From assembly GCA_002269645.1 (NCBI GenBank), contig NIVC01000292.1, positions 620,001-684,000 of the forward strand: a DNA stretch of 64,000 nt, given 5' to 3'. A program made the position numbers and the translations under genes. Position 1 is the stretch's first letter. Every line of letters starts with the position of its first letter. The notes under the pieces were generated by a model. That model ran no database searches. It was not told the origin of the DNA and saw only the letters and a program-made list of their open reading frames with translations. This document shows, piece after piece, positions 37,021-49,420 of this stretch. Origin of the DNA: Macrostomum lignano (lineage: Eukaryota).

Positions 37021-37506
37021 CCGCTCGTGTCTGTGCCTGCAGTTGCCATGGACAGAAGGGGATAAAAGAATAAATATATGAGGCGAGATAAAACCAAATG
37101 GAAAGTTTCAAACATAAAAATATATTTCAAATCGGTGCCAAACAGGTTGAATATAAAAATTTTCCTCATCTTCATCATTTGGAAATGAAATCGGGGAATT
37201 CGGCAGACCGGGGCAGCGGGAAAATCCAAGGCTCTGGAGAAGCAGCCGAGAGTTTTGCTGAGCTCTGCTCAGGCATTCTGGGATAAATTGGTTGCTTATG
37301 GAACTGGGATTTGCATGCAAACTTTATAGCTCAGTCGGGTGCACAAGAAGTACTGAAGATTGCATAAAGGTTTAATGGGGTTAGCGATCTGCATCTGAAT
37401 ATTAAATAAATAATTGTGTTAATTTAAGCCACTGTATGGGAGCCCAGCTCAGTGAGTGGCACACTTTGGATACACGGCAACATGAGGGCTTATCTTAGAG
37501 TACTTC

Positions 37507-37996
37507 TGTCACTGACTCATGCCAATCTGTCACTGACTCATGCCAATCTGTCACTGACTCATGCCAATCTGTCACTGACTCATGCCAATCTGTCACTGAC
37601 TCATGCCAATCTGTCACTGACTCATGCCAATCTGTCACTGACTCATGCCAATCTGTCACTGACTCATGCCAATCTGTCACTCACTCATGCCAATCTGTCA
37701 CTCACTCATGCCAATCTGTCACTGACTCATGCCAGTCTGTCACTGACTCATGCCAATCTGTCACTGACTCATGCCAATCTGTCACTCACTCATGCCAATC
37801 TGTCACTCACTCATGCCAATCTGTCACTGACTCATGCCAATCTGTCACTGACTCATGCCAATCTGTCACTGACTCATGCCAATCTGTCACTCACTCATGC
37901 CAATCTGTCACTGACTCATGCCAATCTGTCACTGACTCATGCCAAACTGTCACTGACTCATGCCAGTCTGTCACTGACTCATGCCAATCTGTCACT
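37507..37996. repeat. 21-bp minisatellite (CACTGACTCATGCCAATCTGT)n, left part (continues at 48569-48697)
   Basis: Array split by the LTR element at CACT. Confidence 0.96.
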
Positions 37997-38853
37997 TGTA
38001 GAGTGTTCTACCTCCCGTTAAAAAAAGGAAAAAAGAAGATAATCGTATAATACTACTATAAGTAAGTAAGTACACGCATGTGCGCCTAAGCTTTGAATGA
38101 ATCACGCTACCAGAAAAAGATGTTACCAGAATAATACGCCATGAGCCATTTTCCCCTTTTAGCGCAACACGTGAATTGTCATGATACTATTTTGGATCAA
38201 AAACTTGTCTATAAATACAAGCGATCTGAAGCGGTACCGGAGCCATTCTCCCCACGGAAGAGGAGCGCTCCGAAGAGGAAGCCTTAGGAGGACTTCCTGA
38301 TATACCAAGTCAATCGAGACTCGGTCGAGTTGTTGCGGTAAGCCTTCCTTATTTGCGCCGTTGTGTTAGAGACGTCTCGCTCAAGTCTATTGAGACTTGA
38401 GTCTATTTGAGTCTGTTGAGACTCTTGAGTCTGTTTAGACTCCATTGGTTGCAGTCTCCAGAAGGACTGCCCCTGATAGATCTTAGAGGACTATCAGTGG
38501 TTTCCGGAGCTATACCTAGAGTGCATAGAGGCACTGCTCGAAGAAGGAGGCTTAATTTAGACCGCAGTTTGGCGCAGGGATCCCTTTGTTAATTCGGAAG
38601 CTTCCCATTGGTCCGAGCGACAGAATCCGGCCGGAACTATTTGAAGAAGAAAGAAGAATCGGACCCGATCTACAAACGAAAGTCAGAAGTGACTATACGA
38701 GAGCAACTGAAGACAATCGAGAACTACTCCGAGAGATCTCCAAAGGACTCAAGGTAATTGAATACCTTCTGTTGACTTACTGGGTTGCCTAGCTGCTGAG
38801 CTAGAAGTGATTGTTCCTTGATTATCGAAAGTCGGGTAATAAGGAACACATCA
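37997..38853 (+). repeat. 5' LTR (857 bp), TATAAAT at 38210
   Basis: Matches 47713-48568 except one A in a homopolymer, as far as can be seen by eye. Confidence 0.97.
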
Positions 38854-39567
38854 ATTGGTGATCTCGCCCTCTCGGCACTACTCAAACTTTGAGCAATAGC
38901 CCTGATCAAGCTATTGTAAAGTGACGACAGAGCGACTTCATTAATTTTGCGCGCACGTGTTAGAGTTAACACTTTTCAAGTCCGTACGTTTTGAAACTCG
39001 AGTAAAAAATTTTGGTGTACAGGTTTGAGCACCTGTCAAATTTGAGTACTGTTTGAGCACGCGTGTTAAAATTTTGTTTTGACGAGCTCGAGCAAGTGTG
39101 AGTTAAAATAAAACCGAAATTAAATTCATCGGTACACTGAAAACAAACCGAAAATAAAAGAATCGTCGACGCAAAACAAACAAAAAAATAACGGAAACAT
39201 TTTGCCGGCACAAAAAACTAAAACTGAAATTAATTGAAACTTCGTGGAGAGCGGAGTTAATTGACAAAAGAGAGAGAGTCAAAGAAGAGAAAAAGACTTT
39301 GCAAAACAAGAAGACAAAGCCCACTTCAACTTGAAGATACACTTTGCGGGACGCCGCATAAGTGCGAAATCAGCAAGCGAACAGAACAAGTTCATTTGAG
39401 GACAACCAGTGGCAGCAAGCCACACCGCATCCGAGGCCAGCGAATAACAAATCGACACCACAAGACAATTCGTTACAGTCGAGGTTTATTCCGAGGCAAA
39501 CACCACACTGGACGATCCGTTACAAATCGATCCAGATCTTAAACTACCGTTCTATCCTATCAACAAC

Positions 39568-41868
39568 ATGGCGCGGCGCAATCCAACGGTACACAGAGAC
39601 ATCAAAGAAACGGTCGGTACCTTCTCGATGGAGAAAGATTTTAACACATTTGTCGACCACTTTGACCTGGTATGTAGGGAATACAACCTACAAAATCCAG
39701 AGAAGGCACAGCTGCTGCCACCTCTTCTCCAAGGTACTGCGCGAGAAATTTACGGCAAGCTGGATGCAGCAACACAGCAAAATTATCCAGCACTAATCAT
39801 TCAACTGCGCGCGCATTTCAACCGTTGCGGCACAAACAGATCAGTGCTGCTGCACAAGTTGCATAACAGAAGGATGCAAGCAACAGAATCCTTCCTCGCC
39901 TTTGTGGACGATATCCGCCAGATAATTAAGGCACTGCATCAGCCACCGCTGCAAGCGGCGGACCAACCGCCACTGGGAGCGGCAGAATTGGCCGCCAGAG
40001 AAAGACAACGATTGATGGATCGCGAACAAAACCTCATCCTGCACGTAATAAACAACGCACAGCCGTCACTTCGGGATAGACTTTTGCGTGAAAATATCGA
40101 AACCGAAGAAGACCTTTTGCGGTGCGGAATGCAATGGGAAGCCAGTGCCCCATTAATGACGACAGGCAACAATGAAGTGCAGAAACTGACGCAGCAATTA
40201 AACAAATTAATGCAGCACCAGACAGCTGCTATCGCCGAACAAAAAAGACGAAATGAACGAGCCTCAGCCAGATGTTACTACTGCGGACGAGAAGGACATT
40301 ATCAGATTAATTGTCCCCATTGGTCGACAAGATACGACAAGCCACGACAGACATTCAGCAATCAAAAGCCGCAGAAACCATGGCAGCAATATCAAAATCG
40401 CCAACAAGACATGAGACGCTTCGGAAAGGATGGCCGCTTCGGAAATGATGGCCGCTACGGAAATGACGGCCGCTTCAGAAATGATGGCTACAGGCCACGC
40501 AATGCCAGGTACGCACAAAGACAGCCAACGCAAGCAATGCCACGATACGCGAATGCCATCACGTACACACCGGAAAATGAGCAGCAGGAACAGCAAGTGT
40601 TCACAATTGACGACTTGGAAATGGACTTCACAGTCCCGGAACTTGACATCAGCTTGATCGAAAAGAAGACGACGCACGAGGACAACACTGACAACACAGA
40701 AGAGGCGAATGAAACCGAAATGATCGAATTAAAAGAGACCACCGGAGACAGCAGAGAAAACAGGAAGAAAGTAAATCACAAAAAAAGGGAGGAGGCGGAG
40801 AGCGACACCGGCAACGAAGAAAAGATGAAGACTGGCAGACAAAACAACTATGAATCGACAACAGTGGATGACAACAAAACAAGCACGAAAGACAAAGAAA
40901 TGAGGGAAGAAGAAGAATGTATAAGTTACGGCAACGATCACGACTGCGAGGTGCATGATGGCACGAGCGGATACCGAGCCGAAGAAGGAATACAGGAAGA
41001 ACTGAGAGCGGAAAATCTAAGCTCCGACAGCGATCAAGGCTACGAAATACAATGGAAAGATGAAGAAATGGAAAAAGAACAAATGAAAGAAAAGCCGAGT
41101 TCCGACAGCGACGAATGCTACGAGATCCGATACAAACGAAATGGTGAAGCCTATATTCAAACGGTCGACTACAAGGCAGAGAAAAGATACCAAACGCAAT
41201 GGAGTGAAACAACGGAAACATCGGAAGAAGCTACAGACGAAGATACTGAAATAACCAAAGAGCAAAGCAAATCAGAAGCCTTCCGCCTGAATCAGCCAAT
41301 GGAACAACCGAAAGAATACGATGCGGACATGGAGGATAACGAATGGCAATCGCAGCCAATGCCAGCAAAGACAACGGCAAGGTCCAAGAAGTGGAAAAAC
41401 TGGCTGCTCTGGATCATCGTGATACTACTGATAGCAGTAGTCGCCAAAGCAACGGCAATGGAGAAACCAATGATATGTCCAACGGATGCGCATATCCAAC
41501 CAATGATCTACAAGATACCAACCGACATCAAATGCAGCTACTTCAAGACAAACCAGACGAAGCCAAAGAAGATCACAATTGATCTCTACAAAGCTAACAT
41601 CAAGAAGCATCGACAACTCGGAATAGTGTGCTTTAGAGACAAGCACCTAGTGGAAAAAGTTTGGCGAGGACAGTGGAACAGAATTCGATTTTGGCAACAC
41701 GAACTACATGTGTCGCACGCTGAATGTCTACAATGGAACCAAACACTGTTCTCAAAGGATGGTCAGCTAGAACCGGATGAGAAAGTGGGGAGGCACAACT
41801 TTACCGAACGAAGAACTCAGCAAACGGACGATATGTACACTTTTCGGAAGCATGGACTAACTACATGA
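39568..41868 (+). CDS. gag: Gag (capsid, one CCHC knuckle, acidic linker) fused in frame to a signal/TM segment and the envelope N-terminus
   Basis: CYYCGREGHYQINC (40273-40314); hydrophobic WLLWIIVILLIAVVAKATA (41401-41457) followed by a Cys-containing ectodomain with NQT sequons. Confidence 0.9.
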   Translation: MARRNPTVHRDIKETVGTFSMEKDFNTFVDHFDLVCREYNLQNPEKAQLLPPLLQGTAREIYGKLDAATQQNYPALIIQLRAHFNRCGTNRSVLLHKLHNRRMQATESFLAFVDDIRQIIKALHQPPLQAADQPPLGAAELAARERQRLMDREQNLILHVINNAQPSLRDRLLRENIETEEDLLRCGMQWEASAPLMTTGNNEVQKLTQQLNKLMQHQTAAIAEQKRRNERASARCYYCGREGHYQINCPHWSTRYDKPRQTFSNQKPQKPWQQYQNRQQDMRRFGKDGRFGNDGRYGNDGRFRNDGYRPRNARYAQRQPTQAMPRYANAITYTPENEQQEQQVFTIDDLEMDFTVPELDISLIEKKTTHEDNTDNTEEANETEMIELKETTGDSRENRKKVNHKKREEAESDTGNEEKMKTGRQNNYESTTVDDNKTSTKDKEMREEEECISYGNDHDCEVHDGTSGYRAEEGIQEELRAENLSSDSDQGYEIQWKDEEMEKEQMKEKPSSDSDECYEIRYKRNGEAYIQTVDYKAEKRYQTQWSETTETSEEATDEDTEITKEQSKSEAFRLNQPMEQPKEYDADMEDNEWQSQPMPAKTTARSKKWKNWLLWIIVILLIAVVAKATAMEKPMICPTDAHIQPMIYKIPTDIKCSYFKTNQTKPKKITIDLYKANIKKHRQLGIVCFRDKHLVEKVWRGQWNRIRFWQHELHVSHAECLQWNQTLFSKDGQLEPDEKVGRHNFTERRTQQTDDMYTFRKHGLTT

Positions 41869-43346
41869 CACGAAACAGTTACCTAATCAGGAATATTCCA
41901 TTCTATCACAATCCTTTTGAAAAAATGGAGTCGCTACAACTGCAATTAAGCGACTGCCGATACAGCAAAGGATGGTGTCCAACGCCGATACTGCGGAATG
42001 AGGAACTATACAGCTTACCGTTGAGTCCAACATATCATCAAGACTATCGATGGCAAATTATACGCAGAGGCGACTCACGATATGAAGAACCATCTAAGTC
42101 ACGACAATACTTCTTCGCGTGGGAAGTTGAGCCGGAAATTGACTGCAAGCTTCAAAAGTATCACACAGTTGAAGGAGGACTACTGTCAAATACGTTTTTG
42201 GCAAAGTCAGGAGACTTGGCACTGACGTTTCAAAAGAAACCAGTCGAGCAAAAACTGAAATGCAAGGATACAGACAAGACACTATTCATCTCGGAACAAG
42301 AGATACCAGTCTACGTAAAAGATGACGACAAACAAACCTTTCTGGCGATCATCAACGGAACGTATCAACAGCAGGAACAACAGAACAGACGACGACGTGA
42401 CATCGAACGTCCCAAACTGGTGTCAAACCGACTACTGTCAGCAAAGATAACGGCTTTGGATCACAATCTACACAACCAGTTAAACCACTTGCATCGAACA
42501 CTGGTCCAGCTAACTTGCAAAATGCACGCAATCAACTTAAATTATGCCAGACAAAACTACTATGTCAACCCTACGATGACTTTTCGTAAAATCACCGGAA
42601 TGACGAACGTTTTGGCAGTTCCAATATACGAGCATCTGTTAATATACAAGTGCACGCCGATACAGCACTTTAACATCTTGCCGTCGAACACGTCAACAAC
42701 CTGCTACGACAAGCCAAGGATTGAAGCGTTCTACGAAGGAAAACGAATTCAGGGATTCTTGGACACGGTACACAACATCATCGTTGGCACCGCAATACCG
42801 AGACCTTGCACCACGGCAGCAAACTACTATCAACTGGACAATGCACTACACGTCATCAAAACAACTGGAACGACAGCAAACGTCACAGAACCGGAAGTAA
42901 TCGTCGACGAAAACTACGACATGGAGGATTTGAAAATCCGATTCAACAGAACGAAGTATACGCCATTCGCCGATATCCAACTTGACGAGATAACACCAGG
43001 ATGGACGATCAACGACTTCTTGCAAGCGTTCATCACCCAACGCAAGATGATTCACCAGCTGTTCACAAGAAAGGACAAAGGAACCGGGACAGGAAGATTT
43101 CCCGTCCTTGTTTCAATGGACAGCGCCATCAAATCATTTTGGACAAATAGCTTCTGGGAGCTGCTCAATGGAAGAGGCAGTCTCTATCAAGGATTCATCT
43201 TCTACGGTGCTTGCATTGTGTGGATTGTCACGGCAATCTTCATCATTTCATCGATCGTACGGTGCTTCAGTCAAACTTGTCCAAGAGCTAAGAAGACAGT
43301 GAATGCCATAATGCAAAGAACGACAACGGAAGCGACAACAGTTTAG
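41781..43346 (+). CDS. env: Envelope glycoprotein, class III (gB/chuvirus-like), central and C-terminal part
   Basis: Frame open from 41781; DCRYSKGWC, furin-type RRRR (42387-42398), long helix then NPT..RK..G...V.A......L.I.KC (gB domain III/IV-like), CYDKP...GFLD, several N-X-S/T, TM FIFYGACIVWIVTAIFIISSIV. Confidence 0.8.
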   Translation, partial: ESGEAQLYRTKNSANGRYVHFSEAWTNYMTRNSYLIRNIPFYHNPFEKMESLQLQLSDCRYSKGWCPTPILRNEELYSLPLSPTYHQDYRWQIIRRGDSRYEEPSKSRQYFFAWEVEPEIDCKLQKYHTVEGGLLSNTFLAKSGDLALTFQKKPVEQKLKCKDTDKTLFISEQEIPVYVKDDDKQTFLAIINGTYQQQEQQNRRRRDIERPKLVSNRLLSAKITALDHNLHNQLNHLHRTLVQLTCKMHAINLNYARQNYYVNPTMTFRKITGMTNVLAVPIYEHLLIYKCTPIQHFNILPSNTSTTCYDKPRIEAFYEGKRIQGFLDTVHNIIVGTAIPRPCTTAANYYQLDNALHVIKTTGTTANVTEPEVIVDENYDMEDLKIRFNRTKYTPFADIQLDEITPGWTINDFLQAFITQRKMIHQLFTRKDKGTGTGRFPVLVSMDSAIKSFWTNSFWELLNGRGSLYQGFIFYGACIVWIVTAIFIISSIVRCFSQTCPRAKKTVNAIMQRTTTEATTV

Positions 43347-46300
43347 AACTAACAGAAACTGCACATTGTGAGGTTCAAGGGCAACCGACACTAGCAACGC
43401 GGCTATATCCATCGATTCCGACAACACCAACGGCACCAAGGATACAACCACCCAACTATCAAGCAGAACAGCACGAGCCAAAATGGCCGGAAAACTACGT
43501 CTGTACGCTACACGCCGAGATTGGCAAAGCAATGGCTCAGGTCATTGTCAACAACTTGCCATGTCGAGCACTACTGGATTCAGGCAGCTCGATCACAGTC
43601 ATCTCGCAACAATTATGCAACAAGCTACGACTCGCGGTACGACCAGCAGCAATCGCAGTTGCAGGAGCAGGAGGACATTCACTCAACATCCTAGGAAAAG
43701 CAGATATCGACTTGAAAATTGCTAATAAACAGCTGACGGTCCCGACGTACATCATCGACAGACTACCAAACCAAGACGTCATCGTTGGAATCGACACGTT
43801 CAAGCAGCTTCAACTACCATTGACCTTCGACTTCAACAAGCAAACGTTTAGGATCGACACGGTGGAGCAACCGCTGATCAACCAGATTCGAGTACTACCG
43901 AAAGTAACTCTGCAGCAAGATGTCATTATCCAGCCTGAAAGCGCATGCTGGGTCAGAGCGAAAACGACCAGCGCGGCAGATGAAGCAATGATATTTGATC
44001 CACACAGGAGAGTCACGGCAAAACATCAAATCATGATGCCTACGGCACTAGTGCTGGTTGCAAAGGATAAGCAACTGCCAGTACAAATCTTCAACCCGAA
44101 CACAGAAACGGTTCATCTACGACAAGGAATGTGCATCGGTCATCTCAACACCCAAGCATCGGTTATGCTGATTGAACAAGCGACTCCACGACTAACAGAG
44201 GAAGAATTTCAAAAGAAGATCAATTTGGATGACAGCCCGATTACGGAACAGCAAAAGAGGAAAGTTCGACAGCTGTTGTGGAAGTACAACGAAGCCTTCT
44301 GCCATCATGATTACGACATCGGACGAGCCAAGGACATCAAACAGGAAATCAAACTTCTGCCGCACACGGAACCAATTCAGTGCAAGCCGTACCCGATCGC
44401 CAAGCATCTGCAACAACACTTTGACGAAATCATCGATAAAATGCTAAAGCACGGCATCATCAGCAAAGCTATTTCGGCTTACTCCTCACCGTGCCTACTG
44501 GTACAAAGAAGGAGACAAACGAAAGACGACTCGTATGCGACTTCAGACTGTTGAACAAGTACATACCGACGGATCAGCAAAGCCTACCGAAGATCTCCGA
44601 ACTACTAGCAAAGCTCAACACGGCAAAATTGTTCACGGTGTTCGACCTACGTCATGGATTTTGGCAAATTGAAATCGAGAAAGAGTCACGACAGTACACG
44701 GCTTTCAAAACCTACAATGGACAAGTATACGAGTACAATCGATCGCCGATGGGACTCAGCAACAGCCCAGCAACGATGAGCCGACTAACAGCATACATGC
44801 TTGCAGGATGCACGAACCTGTTGCACTATGTTGACGACATCTTGGCCCACGGAGAAGACTTCGAACGACTCTATGAAGCGACGGAGAAGGCCCTCGCGCT
44901 TATACAACGTCAAGGTCTGAAGCTACAACCACTAAATGCAAATTCTTCCGAGACAACGTGCGTTACCTGGACATCAGGTGACAGCCAAAGGAATCTCACC
45001 GGACCCAGACAACGTGGAAAAGGTGAAGAAGTTTCCTACGCCAACCAGTATAACGAAGGTCCAATCATTCCTTGGACTTGCGCAATACTTCAGGAAGTTC
45101 TTACCTAACTTCGCAAAGACAGCAAAGCCACTGTACGACCTGCTCAAGTTCGACAAATGGAAGCAAGACAACTGGACACAGAGACAACAGGAAAGTTTCG
45201 ACGAAATCAAACGACAGCTGACATCAGACGCACTGCTACAGCATCCGGACTTCGACAAGCCCTTCATCATCGAGACAGACGCCTCAGGAACGGGACTCGG
45301 AGCAGTCCTACTACAGGAAACCGAGGACAAGAAGGAACGACCTATTGCTTACGTCAGTCGAGCACTCAAACCAAATGAGACAAAGTGGTCAGCTACGGAA
45401 CGAGAGCTACTAGGAGTCTTGTTCGCCCTGCGACAGTTTCATTACTACATCTATGGTTCTCCAATACAGACGATAGTACGCACGGATCATGCACCATTGA
45501 CCTACGTCGTAACTACAAAAGGACAGACCAACAACCGACTCATCAGGATGACACTCAAGATCCAGGATTACAACTACAAACTCGTCTACAAACCAGGAAT
45601 TACCAACAAAGCCGCGGACGCCCTGTCAAGAGCCTATGAAGTCAACGCCATTCATCCAATCCCTAACATCAAGGAGTTGGTGGATGAAACCGAGCGCGAC
45701 AACTTCTACCAAGCGGTTAAAGACGACGACAAGAACATCAAACTTAGCCCCATGGAACGAAAGTTCCTACGCAAGCAACGACAACACCTAACAATCAATA
45801 AGTCACGGCTCTACTGGATGAGCGACAATAAACCCAAGATCTACATACCATATTCGTTTCGGCAAGCAATTCTCAACGAGCTACACGACAACCCACTCGC
45901 TGGACACCTGTCGGCAGCAAAGACCATCGCGAGAGTGGAACAATACTACTTTTGGCCAACTATGTACGGCGACATCAAGCAGTATTGCAACAACTGCCAT
46001 TCATGTGCTGCATCAAAGACAGGACGACGACAGAAACCGCAGCTACAGTCCATTCCGAAGTCGACTACAATGGACTGTCTAAGCATCGACATCACCGGAC
46101 CACTGCCACCGAGCTGTCTCCAGGGCATCGCCTACACCTACATTCTAACCGCCTTGGATATCTTCTCGAAGTTTGCTATCGCCATACCGATACCGGACAT
46201 CACAGCTCAGACAGTGGCAATGAGTTTCTTCAACGAAATCATTTGCAAGTACGGCACGCCGAAGAACCTCACATCGGACAACGGATCGCAGTTTACATCG

Positions 46301-47038
46301 CAACTGTTTCAGCAAGTCGTAAGGATTCTCAACATTACGCAGATCTACACATCGACCTACAATCCGAAGGCAAACATGGTTGAACGGTTTCACCGCAACC
46401 TGCACGAGATGATTACACATTTCGCGCACCAACAGCCGGAAGACTGGATCATCTACCTGCAATCTGTAACAATGGCCTACAACAGCGCTATTCATCGATC
46501 AACGGACAATACGCCATTCTTCCTAATGTTTGGACGAGACTTCCAACCGCCGAATCTGCTCGCACAGCAATTGCTACCATCGCAGTACGTGGAAGTACCG
46601 ACTTCCATTCAGAAATTCGTCACGCAACTACACCTCGCATGGAAGATCGCCAAGCACAACATTGACAACCAGGTGGCTCTGACCACCGGCAACGACGCGA
46701 GATCGACAACCCTGACGGCCGGCGACATCGTTTACCTACACTACCCGCCGCAGCAGACGCATAAACATGCACAGAAGTATAAAGGACCCTATCGAGTGGT
46801 CCAACTAACGTCACCGACAACGGCACGCCTGGCTAATGTACAAGATCCACATCAGCACCAGTTCTACGTACACATTCATCGACTAAAGAAGATCAACACT
46901 GACACCGCGACGTTTCTACCGACATTAGACAACGCTGATCGCACGCGTTCAACGAACCGCCACATCGCGACGAAGCACGAGGAGACTCAAACGACAGATG
47001 TGAGCCAGCCACATGGCTACAACCTACGACCACGCTAG
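43292..47038 (+). CDS. pol: Pol (PR, RT, RNase H, integrase) broken by three single-base frameshifts
   Basis: LDSGSS; YSSPCLLV; FDLRHGFWQI; YVDD; ETDASG, TERELLG, TDHAPL, ADALSR; H-x6-H...C-x2-C; IDITGP, SDNGSQF, VERFH; GPY/F motif KGPYRV. Confidence 0.95.
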
Positions 47039-47158: not shown

Positions 47159-47533
47159 ATGGGCAACGCACTGTCGAAACAGGCGCCCCAGCCTCAGCAG
47201 CTATATGACTGCCCGATATGTTTAACTGATGACTTGGCTGTCAAGCCACCGACTATTTGCATCAACGAACATAAAGTTTGCGGACAATGTTTAAGCGATT
47301 CACATTATATTCAGCCATGGCAGAATTGTCCCCTCTGTAGAGATAGTTTGCGACAATGTGCCTATTGTTATTCTTGGCGCACGTTTCAATATTGTAACCA
47401 CCAACATTTTATTTGCATGCACTGTTTGAAGCAAACCGCTAGTAGGGGCGTTATAGGATGCCCCTTATGTAATAGTATGCCGCGAGACTGCACGTTTCGA
47501 AAGTGGTGTCGGATCAAACCTGATGCCACTTGA
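47159..47533 (+). CDS. 124-aa N-myristoylation-motif, tandem-RING protein inside the LTR element
   Basis: MGNALS; CPIC-x12-C-x3-H-x2-C-x2-C-x12-CPLC then CAYC-x8-C-x3-H-x2-C-x2-C-x11-CPLC. Confidence 0.8.
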   Translation: MGNALSKQAPQPQQLYDCPICLTDDLAVKPPTICINEHKVCGQCLSDSHYIQPWQNCPLCRDSLRQCAYCYSWRTFQYCNHQHFICMHCLKQTASRGVIGCPLCNSMPRDCTFRKWCRIKPDAT

Positions 47534-47712
47534 TGTCTACGCGATATTCGAGTTTTGACCGCAATATGTACTGAAAAGTTTTTAGAGTTTTGACCAAACC
47601 CTCGCTTCACTAGACGCGCACAAAATCAATTGTTTATTTCCTATATTAACTGATCACCACAGAATTTTATTGTTAAAACTCGGGACGAGTTTTTTCGTAA
47701 AAAGGGAGATTT

Positions 47713-48568
47713 TGTAGAGTGTTCTACCTCCCGTTAAAAAAGGAAAAAAGAAGATAATCGTATAATACTACTATAAGTAAGTAAGTACACGCATGTGCGC
47801 CTAAGCTTTGAATGAATCACGCTACCAGAAAAAGATGTTACCAGAATAATACGCCATGAGCCATTTTCCCCTTTTAGCGCAACACGTGAATTGTCATGAT
47901 ACTATTTTGGATCAAAAACTTGTCTATAAATACAAGCGATCTGAAGCGGTACCGGAGCCATTCTCCCCACGGAAGAGGAGCGCTCCGAAGAGGAAGCCTT
48001 AGGAGGACTTCCTGATATACCAAGTCAATCGAGACTCGGTCGAGTTGTTGCGGTAAGCCTTCCTTATTTGCGCCGTTGTGTTAGAGACGTCTCGCTCAAG
48101 TCTATTGAGACTTGAGTCTATTTGAGTCTGTTGAGACTCTTGAGTCTGTTTAGACTCCATTGGTTGCAGTCTCCAGAAGGACTGCCCCTGATAGATCTTA
48201 GAGGACTATCAGTGGTTTCCGGAGCTATACCTAGAGTGCATAGAGGCACTGCTCGAAGAAGGAGGCTTAATTTAGACCGCAGTTTGGCGCAGGGATCCCT
48301 TTGTTAATTCGGAAGCTTCCCATTGGTCCGAGCGACAGAATCCGGCCGGAACTATTTGAAGAAGAAAGAAGAATCGGACCCGATCTACAAACGAAAGTCA
48401 GAAGTGACTATACGAGAGCAACTGAAGACAATCGAGAACTACTCCGAGAGATCTCCAAAGGACTCAAGGTAATTGAATACCTTCTGTTGACTTACTGGGT
48501 TGCCTAGCTGCTGAGCTAGAAGTGATTGTTCCTTGATTATCGAAAGTCGGGTAATAAGGAACACATCA
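47713..48568 (+). repeat. 3' LTR (856 bp)
   Basis: See 5' LTR. Confidence 0.97.
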
Positions 48569-48693
48569 CACTGACTCATGCCAATCTGTCACTCACTCAT
48601 GCCAATCTGCCACTCACTCATGCCAATCTGTCACTGACTCATGCCAATCTGTCACTGACTCATGCCAGTCTGTCACTGACTCATGCCAGTCTG

Positions 48694-49155
48694 TCACTGC
48701 AGAAATTTGTGCTCCAGCAGCTCCGCGGTGGCCGCTCGCCTCCTCGGCTCCCTCTGGACGCACCGTCCGTAGAAGTCCCTCAGCAGGGCGGAGGTCCCGG
48801 CCGGCAGCTGCGGCATGTCGTGGTTTCGAATCCTCAGCGGGATCTGCTGCCACATGAGCTGCCCATTCGGAGGCTTTATCTCCAGCATCTCGAACACGGA
48901 GCAGCCGAAAGCCCACACGTCAGTCTTGCGTGAGTACACGATTCTTCCGTCCTCACTGAACAGCTCAGGAGCCATGAAGTAGGGGGTGCCGCAATCCCTC
49001 TTGGTGCTGCGCATCGTGGCGAAGACCTCCTTGGCGAGACCGAAGTCGATCAGCTTGATGAGGCCCTCGTTGGTGAGCATCAAGTTGGAGCACTTGATGT
49101 CACGGTGCAGGGTGACGGGACTGCGGCTGTGCAGGAAGTGGAGCGCTGAGCAGAT
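48694..49155 (-). CDS. Ankyrin-kinase A, last exon (MAP3K/STE11-like Ser/Thr kinase C-lobe)
   Basis: [28 protein letters not shown]; acceptor actcacag. Confidence 0.93.
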
Positions 49156-49176
49156 CTGTGAGTTGGGGAGCGAGTG

Positions 49177-49420
49177 AGCAGGGGTAGTGTGGGATCTGAG
49201 CTGCTTGGAGAAGTTTCTCACTGCTGCATGGGGTGGTGTGGGATCTGAGCTGCTTGGAGAAGTCCCTCACTGCTGCATGGGGTGGTGTGGGATCTGAGCT
49301 GCTTGGAGAAGTCCCTCACTGCTGCATGGGGTGGTGTGAGATCTGAGCTGCTTGGAGAAGTCCCTCACTGCTGCATGGGGTGGTGTGGGATCTCACTTGC
49401 TTGGAGAAGTCCCTCACTGC
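49177..49420. repeat. 49-bp exon/intron-junction minisatellite, 4 copies plus the original
   Basis: Unit = last ~24 nt of the exon plus the start of the intron. Confidence 0.92.

Follow-up and report, generated by a model that had tools for sequence, protein, structure and literature searches.

Putative ESCRT late domains on the envelope tail of a gag-env-pol Ty3/gypsy element family in Macrostomum lignano

The window analysed here is a stretch of 64,000 nucleotides from Macrostomum lignano (assembly GCA_002269645.1, contig NIVC01000292.1, positions 620,001 to 684,000 of the forward strand). It contains an LTR retrotransposon with the following features, given in window coordinates:

37997-38853, plus strand: 5' LTR (TG...CA); a 4-base target duplication, CACT, flanks the element
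38856-38867, plus strand: primer binding site, read from the sequence; same 12 bases as in the catalogued element discussed below
39568-41391, plus strand: Gag and acidic spacer, with a zinc knuckle at 40273-40314 (zf-CCHC, E 0.0016)
41392-41457, plus strand: internal signal or signal-anchor, with basic residues before it and Ala-x-Ala at its end
41458-43190, plus strand: gB-type (class III) envelope ectodomain (PF24664, E 1e-5, below the cut-off of that model; structure match)
42387, plus strand: furin-like RRRR in the ectodomain, read from the sequence
43191-43259, plus strand: Env transmembrane anchor (hydropathy scan and sequence)
43260-43486, plus strand: predicted cytosolic Env tail of about 76 residues, inside which the window copy shifts frame near 43.3 kb
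43403-43417, plus strand: LYPSI, ALIX-type YPx(L/I) motif, direct reading of the frame
43427-43438, plus strand: PTAP, TSG101-type motif, direct reading of the frame
43448-43459, plus strand: PPNY, NEDD4/WW-type PPxY motif, direct reading of the frame
43484-43489, plus strand: Trp-Pro pair, at which the protease might sever its own N-terminus from the Env tail (candidate site)
43487-47038, plus strand: Pol (Pfam matches above cut-off)
43538-43807, plus strand: protease (Pfam, above cut-off)
44506-44931, plus strand: reverse transcriptase (Pfam, above cut-off)
45173-45571, plus strand: RNase H (Pfam, above cut-off)
45845-46366, plus strand: integrase (Pfam, above cut-off)
47159-47533, plus strand: stand-alone ORF of 124 residues containing RING-like clusters of Cys and His (zf-RING_2 match with an E of 0.002, under the cut-off)
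47699-47709, plus strand: polypurine tract, read from the sequence ahead of the 3' LTR
47713-48568, plus strand: 3' LTR, pairing with the 5' LTR

Because the two LTRs are identical over all 856 aligned bases (856/856, with one 1-base gap), the insertion is very young. Its two LTRs, primer binding site and polypurine tract are those of Metaviridae (Ty3/gypsy), a family which, like the genus Errantivirus, is defined here according to PMC7879559. The pol domains follow in the order protease, reverse transcriptase, RNase H and integrase (PF13975, PF00078, PF17919/PF17917, PF17921 and PF00665, all above cut-off), and no BEL/Pao peptidase was found in the element by Pfam. Canonical errantiviruses (ICTV) carry env downstream of integrase, whereas here it lies between gag and protease; this position between gag and pol is that of the GAG-ENV-POL HSV/gB-type errantiviruses, an operational class described in PMC13524379. 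In the presumed envelope, a signal or anchor on one side and a transmembrane segment on the other enclose a gB-like class III ectodomain, which matches PF24664 weakly. In a Foldseek search with a model of a natural copy (pLDDT 59), all 31 rows among the matches listed were herpesvirus gB, the best with an E of 1.8e-19 and TM-scores of only about 0.23. A signal-like segment was also present in nine further-examined loci, and the first methionine of Gag is not followed by Gly2, so that Gag has no myristoyl site. The window element is a young Ty3/gypsy element with the order gag-env-pol and a herpes gB-like envelope.

Both the family and its gene order are already in print (PMC13524379). Platyhelminthes_Rhabditophora_Mlig_errantivirus_2 (Chary and Hayashi, PMC13524379) has the same 12-base primer site, a gB-type Env, an LTR of about 860 bases and an LTR spacing of 9727 (9716 in the window), with 16 copies listed; the match was made on this catalogue description (primer site, LTR length and spacing) and not on sequence. 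The same survey, which placed this element by Pol, reports elements with the GAG-ENV-POL order and a gB-type Env from nematodes, bryozoans and flatworms (PMC13524379). At least seven distinct gag-env-pol families occur in the genome, compared to one element in the published table for the matching host row set.

The element sits in a 21-base satellite (37500-37996 and 48569-48700). Each LTR contains a 78-codon open frame (38556-38792 in the 5' copy) without a Pfam match, and a long acidic low-complexity spacer (40600-41390) separates the zinc knuckle from the internal signal. Beside the 3' LTR, a kinase-like exon was recognized on the minus strand (48694-49266) by its sequence.

The frame 43292-44554, which translates as TRLYPSIPTTPTAPRIQPPNYQ, contains the three motifs within 57 bases (19 residues), and all of them match their consensus, P(S/T)AP, YPx(L/I) and PPxY; the fifth residue of LYPSI is I, not L. 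The cluster starts 48 codons past the anchor, and the protease DSG (43577-43585) follows about 40 codons further on. The original prediction, which had proposed ALIX-, TSG101- and NEDD4-type motifs within 19 residues at this place, was confirmed by these coordinates and by composition-keeping shuffles of the 77-residue window tail, in which the three classes never occurred together (0/100,000) and the single classes had frequencies of 0.015, 0.025 and 0.024. The triple is beyond chance. For comparison, translation of the window in all six frames (122,435 residues) yields only 10 P(S/T)AP, 24 YPx(L/I) and 4 PPxY, and the Gag of the window copy is without P(S/T)AP or PPxY and has a single YPAL, in the capsid region.

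In the window copy itself, a stop codon at 43344-43346 closes the envelope frame, and a different frame contains the motifs. This copy is split into five frames, with breaks near 41.8, 43.3, 44.5 and 44.9-45.0 kb, differs at 7 indel sites from nearly all of 15 compared copies, and is defective as assembled. A genome search yielded 40 matches to the element, 30 of them returned as loci. Anchor, motifs and protease share one frame in 24 of these 30 loci, and the frame change between anchor and motifs is common to the other six, the window included, which represent either a defective subfamily or an assembly error. Among 20 copies fetched at length from the 40 matches, with the six shifted copies left out, six keep every marker, Gag through integrase, in a common frame, and three other families have an uninterrupted frame of 2458-2866 residues in which the parts follow each other in the same order. 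As judged from these open frames, the family encodes gag, env and pol as one polyprotein in a single frame. The polyprotein model of the original prediction thus holds for the family, and the tail position that it gave the motifs, between Env anchor and protease, holds for the 24 loci but not for the window copy as assembled, whose motifs are out of the envelope frame. Translation of the motif frame, on which the prediction had also depended, can be expected in those 24 loci, where it is open together with the anchor.

Two contigs from separate sequencing runs cross the shift site with one gap relative to the window, the place of which is not given. Private indels of the other copies are not enriched at homopolymers (11/37, background 0.28). 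A programmed frameshift in the tail was considered and rejected, since no slippery heptamer was seen by eye in 43292-43346 and 24 of the 30 loci need none. Of the sequencing runs listed, 20 out of 24 contain at least half of the sampled element words, none being on record as RNA; contigs of four runs cover all 30 bins of the element, a result that cannot show transcription, strand or splicing. In one run, a contig joint with 30 letters on its shorter side skips 4877 bases. At G000:C2447 and at G000:C669, a single contig bears two copies, at distances of about 9.7 kb and 10.8 kb; these may be tandem elements, the first pair perhaps sharing an LTR.

A protein search of the genome returned 131 matches with identities down to 21%, and 20 stretches from diverged groups were fetched. 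Eight representatives of seven envelope-bearing families were compared, the tail being taken from the anchor to the Trp-Pro pair, which all eight have in their linkers at a distance of 31-40 residues from the catalytic Asp downstream. Seven of the eight tails contain P(S/T)AP (0.24 expected from shuffles) and six contain hydrophobic-YPx(L/I) (0.03 expected); no tail is without a motif, and the rest of those frames, outside the tails, contains one P(S/T)AP and no hydrophobic-YPx(L/I). Tail PPxY is found in the window's family only and is not enriched (1/8 compared to 0.32 expected). Conservation in relatives, whose absence would have spoken against the original prediction, is seen for P(S/T)AP and YPx(L/I) across families but not for PPxY. 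The protease regions of the families that kept the first two motifs are only 22-61% alike. Motif order varies: YPSI precedes PTAP in the window's family, PTAP precedes IYPKI in the 57% family, and in other families PSAP is followed by LYPTL or IYPTI. Such order swaps in a poorly alignable tail would fit the behaviour of short linear motifs under selection. Among eight distinct variants of the window's family, the PTAP codons change silently only, YPSI is invariant behind a first residue L or M, and the P, P and Y of PPxY are fixed, with N or T as x.

Some other families have PPxY or PSAP in the Gag-side region before the internal signal. Furthermore, in three families (L085, L088 and L090) a mucin-like stretch of 200-300 residues, rich in Thr, is inserted immediately ahead of the furin site of the gB-like ectodomain, reminiscent of the mucin domains that occur in filovirus glycoproteins.

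More distant envelopes were collected by an ectodomain profile search, which returned 381 proteins. Among the best 150 of these, 141 reach the C-terminal half and 83 have a callable anchor; after removal of two belonging to this genome's families and three with tails shorter than 30 residues, 78 tails remained. In these tails (from the best 150 of 381 matches) P(S/T)AP was found in 10 (0.68 expected), PPxY in 11 (1.52 expected) and YPx(L/I) in 8 (2.07 expected), at a motif density about ten times that outside the tails. Two or more classes occur together in six tails, once as an overlapping PTAPPTY, compared to 0.13 expected. Conservation beyond chance is thus seen for P(S/T)AP and YPx(L/I) in the genome and for all three classes in distant tails; as the families are kin, the shuffle figures overstate independence and are no true probabilities. 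All three motifs are absent from 55 of the 78 distant tails, some of whose records may be incomplete or have a miscalled anchor, and so many relatives manage without tail motifs. When 86 rows were placed on a quick tree, those with motifs clustered (17 changes, 25.7 when shuffled), the starred branches of the Env tree force at least nine motif changes, and this genome's families form, together with P0005 and P0006, a supported group in which each of the 10 rows has motifs.

These data bear on whether the motifs arose by chance in a disordered linker rich in Pro and Thr, or are PxxP sites of the generic SH3 type. Such an origin would suit a finding picked out of a whole window, the proline content of the tails (12-22% in the family representatives) and the mild enrichment of PxxP in the distant tails (47/78, 36.2 expected). 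It is, however, largely refuted by the shuffles of the window tail, by nine permuted control motifs that occur at chance in the independent set of 78 tails, and by the silent changes of the PTAP codons, and we regard it as very improbable.

A further explanation is that the motifs are the relic of a p6-like Gag end, upstream of which env was inserted, and reside on a free or protease-linked peptide instead of an Env tail. Their place just before the protease is indeed that of p6 in HIV-1 Gag, and the Trp-Pro pair recalls the aromatic-Pro cut at the start of the HIV protease. As a control, we inspected envelope-less protease loci of this genome at their listed positions (34 of 51 loci, in 11 groups, one of which lacks a zinc knuckle and may be a host protease). 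None of the 11 groups, of which none was identified as a true sister outgroup, has such a motif in any frame within 150 residues upstream. Moreover, among 33 distant proteins in which no protease was found and for which the record stops shortly behind the tail, 10 have motifs. Both results argue against a p6 relic, which appears improbable.

We favour, with a probability of about 0.62, the reading that the motifs are working ESCRT late domains on the cytosolic Env tail that serve the release of enveloped particles. A single frame runs from Gag through the spacer, signal, gB-like ectodomain, anchor and motif-bearing tail to protease, reverse transcriptase, RNase H and integrase, and the signal, the anchor and the in-frame protease suggest that the tail is exposed to the cytosol. 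The polyprotein would thread the ER membrane twice, leaving the ectodomain luminal and both Gag and the tail-Pol part cytosolic, and Gag, having no myristoyl site, would be held at the membrane via the internal signal of the polyprotein. The protease might then cut at the Trp-Pro pair, which also occurs in 9 of 36 distant Env-protease proteins (background 0.04 per 35 residues), so that the motifs would stay on Env. Many tails at one assembly site could recruit TSG101 through PTAP and ALIX through YPSI, as well as, in the window's family only, a NEDD4-type ligase through PPxY, and ESCRT-III would finally cut the neck, either at the plasma membrane or into multivesicular bodies.

Conservation of the motifs would indicate selection for ESCRT binding, but not which step is served. 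The main rival, accordingly, is that they bind ESCRT or NEDD4-type proteins to sort Env or the polyprotein to endosomes, exosomes or lysosomes and not to bud particles, for instance in trafficking or in limiting a fusogen at the cell surface. The tail of a membrane protein is the usual place of sorting signals, YPSI also fits the YxxΦ pattern, and all conservation results agree equally well with sorting or decay. Particles of the Drosophila errantivirus ZAM, too, use endosomal and exosomal routes (PMC3383448). However, plain Y-nonP-x-hydrophobic is not enriched in the 78 distant tails (30 seen, 29.3 expected) whereas the proline form is, which weakens the sorting alternative; a plain YxxΦ signal was accordingly rejected as the cause of the enrichment. 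In addition, clusters of two to three classes (the six tails above) are the pattern of viral budding proteins, and the Gag of the window copy lacks both P(S/T)AP and PPxY, having only its one YPAL. Sorting without budding is therefore considered rather unlikely, and release of particles remains the preferred reading.

The host genome encodes two of the proteins that such a release would employ, with three strong matches to the TSG101 UEV domain (E 1e-44 to human) and ALIX-type V domains. As a point against, two aromatic positions of the host UEV, which presumably line the PTAP pocket, differ in an alignment with human TSG101. Complex prediction for host UEV and tail gave a weak signal in favour (0.42, compared to 0.01 for the best control; at least 80% of contacts shared between runs, partner pLDDT at least 48), which may derive from a solved complex of the same kind. 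Of the solved pairs, 51 of 78 pass the mark applied, as do 2 of 108 mismatched pairs; passes at 0.60 or under comprise only five of the 78 solved pairs but all four passing mismatches, so that a pass at the level of the UEV-tail pair is more likely to be false than true unless the pair was probable in advance. As to the I of the window's YPSI, ALIX-family proteins accept YPxI (PMC10532540).

Roles of late domains are established for retroviruses and filoviruses, where the same three classes, combined and exchangeable, are known from retroviral proteins and Ebola VP40: PTAP and YPXnL in HIV-1 p6, PPPY and PTAP in HTLV-1, and PSAP, LYPAL and PPPY in MLV (PMC8402826). In retroviruses and Ebola virus these motifs reside on Gag or matrix, whereas in the window element they follow the Env anchor within a Ty3/gypsy polyprotein. 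A precedent for late domains on a membrane protein is Bluetongue virus NS3, a membrane glycoprotein whose PSAP and PPRY bind TSG101 and NEDD4 and which drives egress (PMC7409164). NS3 is non-structural and no fusogen, whereas the presumed carrier here is a fusion protein in one chain with Gag and Pol. The Drosophila errantiviruses gypsy and ZAM are also Env-bearing Metaviridae with unmyristoylated Gag, and a YXXL-like motif has been proposed for gypsy Gag (PMC3383448). They differ in their F-type Env, which is encoded in a separate frame after pol. ESCRT use by errantiviruses was not known according to that 2012 review (PMC3383448), and a 2026 survey calls the transmission mechanism of these elements elusive (PMC13524379).

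The main text of this survey, as accessible, discusses neither the single frame nor tail motifs and contains no match for late domain, ESCRT, budding, polyprotein, cytoplasmic or tail (PMC13524379). In its supplements PTAP had no match either, a result of little weight since cells of more than 400 characters were searched in part only. In the literature searched, which covers few subscription papers, late domains were not found to be described for the Env tail of any retrotransposon. Sacco et al. 2022 reportedly describe nematode gag-env-pol elements, and their work may bear on novelty. The element, its gene order and the motif classes are hence known, and what is apparently unreported is that the motifs lie on the Env tail of a single-frame polyprotein and have been kept in diverged families.

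Selection on budding motifs would bear on the question whether envelope-bearing retrotransposons produce and release particles outside Drosophila, as sequence evidence for cell exit that is independent of the ectodomain; the motifs also name three candidate host proteins. If the favoured reading is true, late domains on the tail of a fusion protein that shares its chain with Gag and Pol would represent a solution unlike the Gag-centred budding of retroviruses. More tentatively, and with somewhat less than even confidence, we propose that GAG-ENV-POL errantiviruses across invertebrates follow an assembly plan undescribed for reverse-transcribing viruses, in which Env anchors the matrix-less Gag and Pol to the membrane via the polyprotein, and the tail of the fusion protein, instead of Gag, bears late domains that were gained and exchanged repeatedly; true enveloped ESCRT budding would then occur in lineages far from vertebrate retroviruses.

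Downstream of integrase, the ORF at 47159-47533 has two RING-like clusters and an MGxxxS start, and could possibly encode a ubiquitin ligase of the element. A role like that of arenavirus Z was not adopted for it, the lead being only 0.87 and the Gly2 start being limited to the window's family. At the corresponding place, the nearest other family has two RING ORFs in tandem, and more distant families have unrelated ORFs of 250-320 residues.
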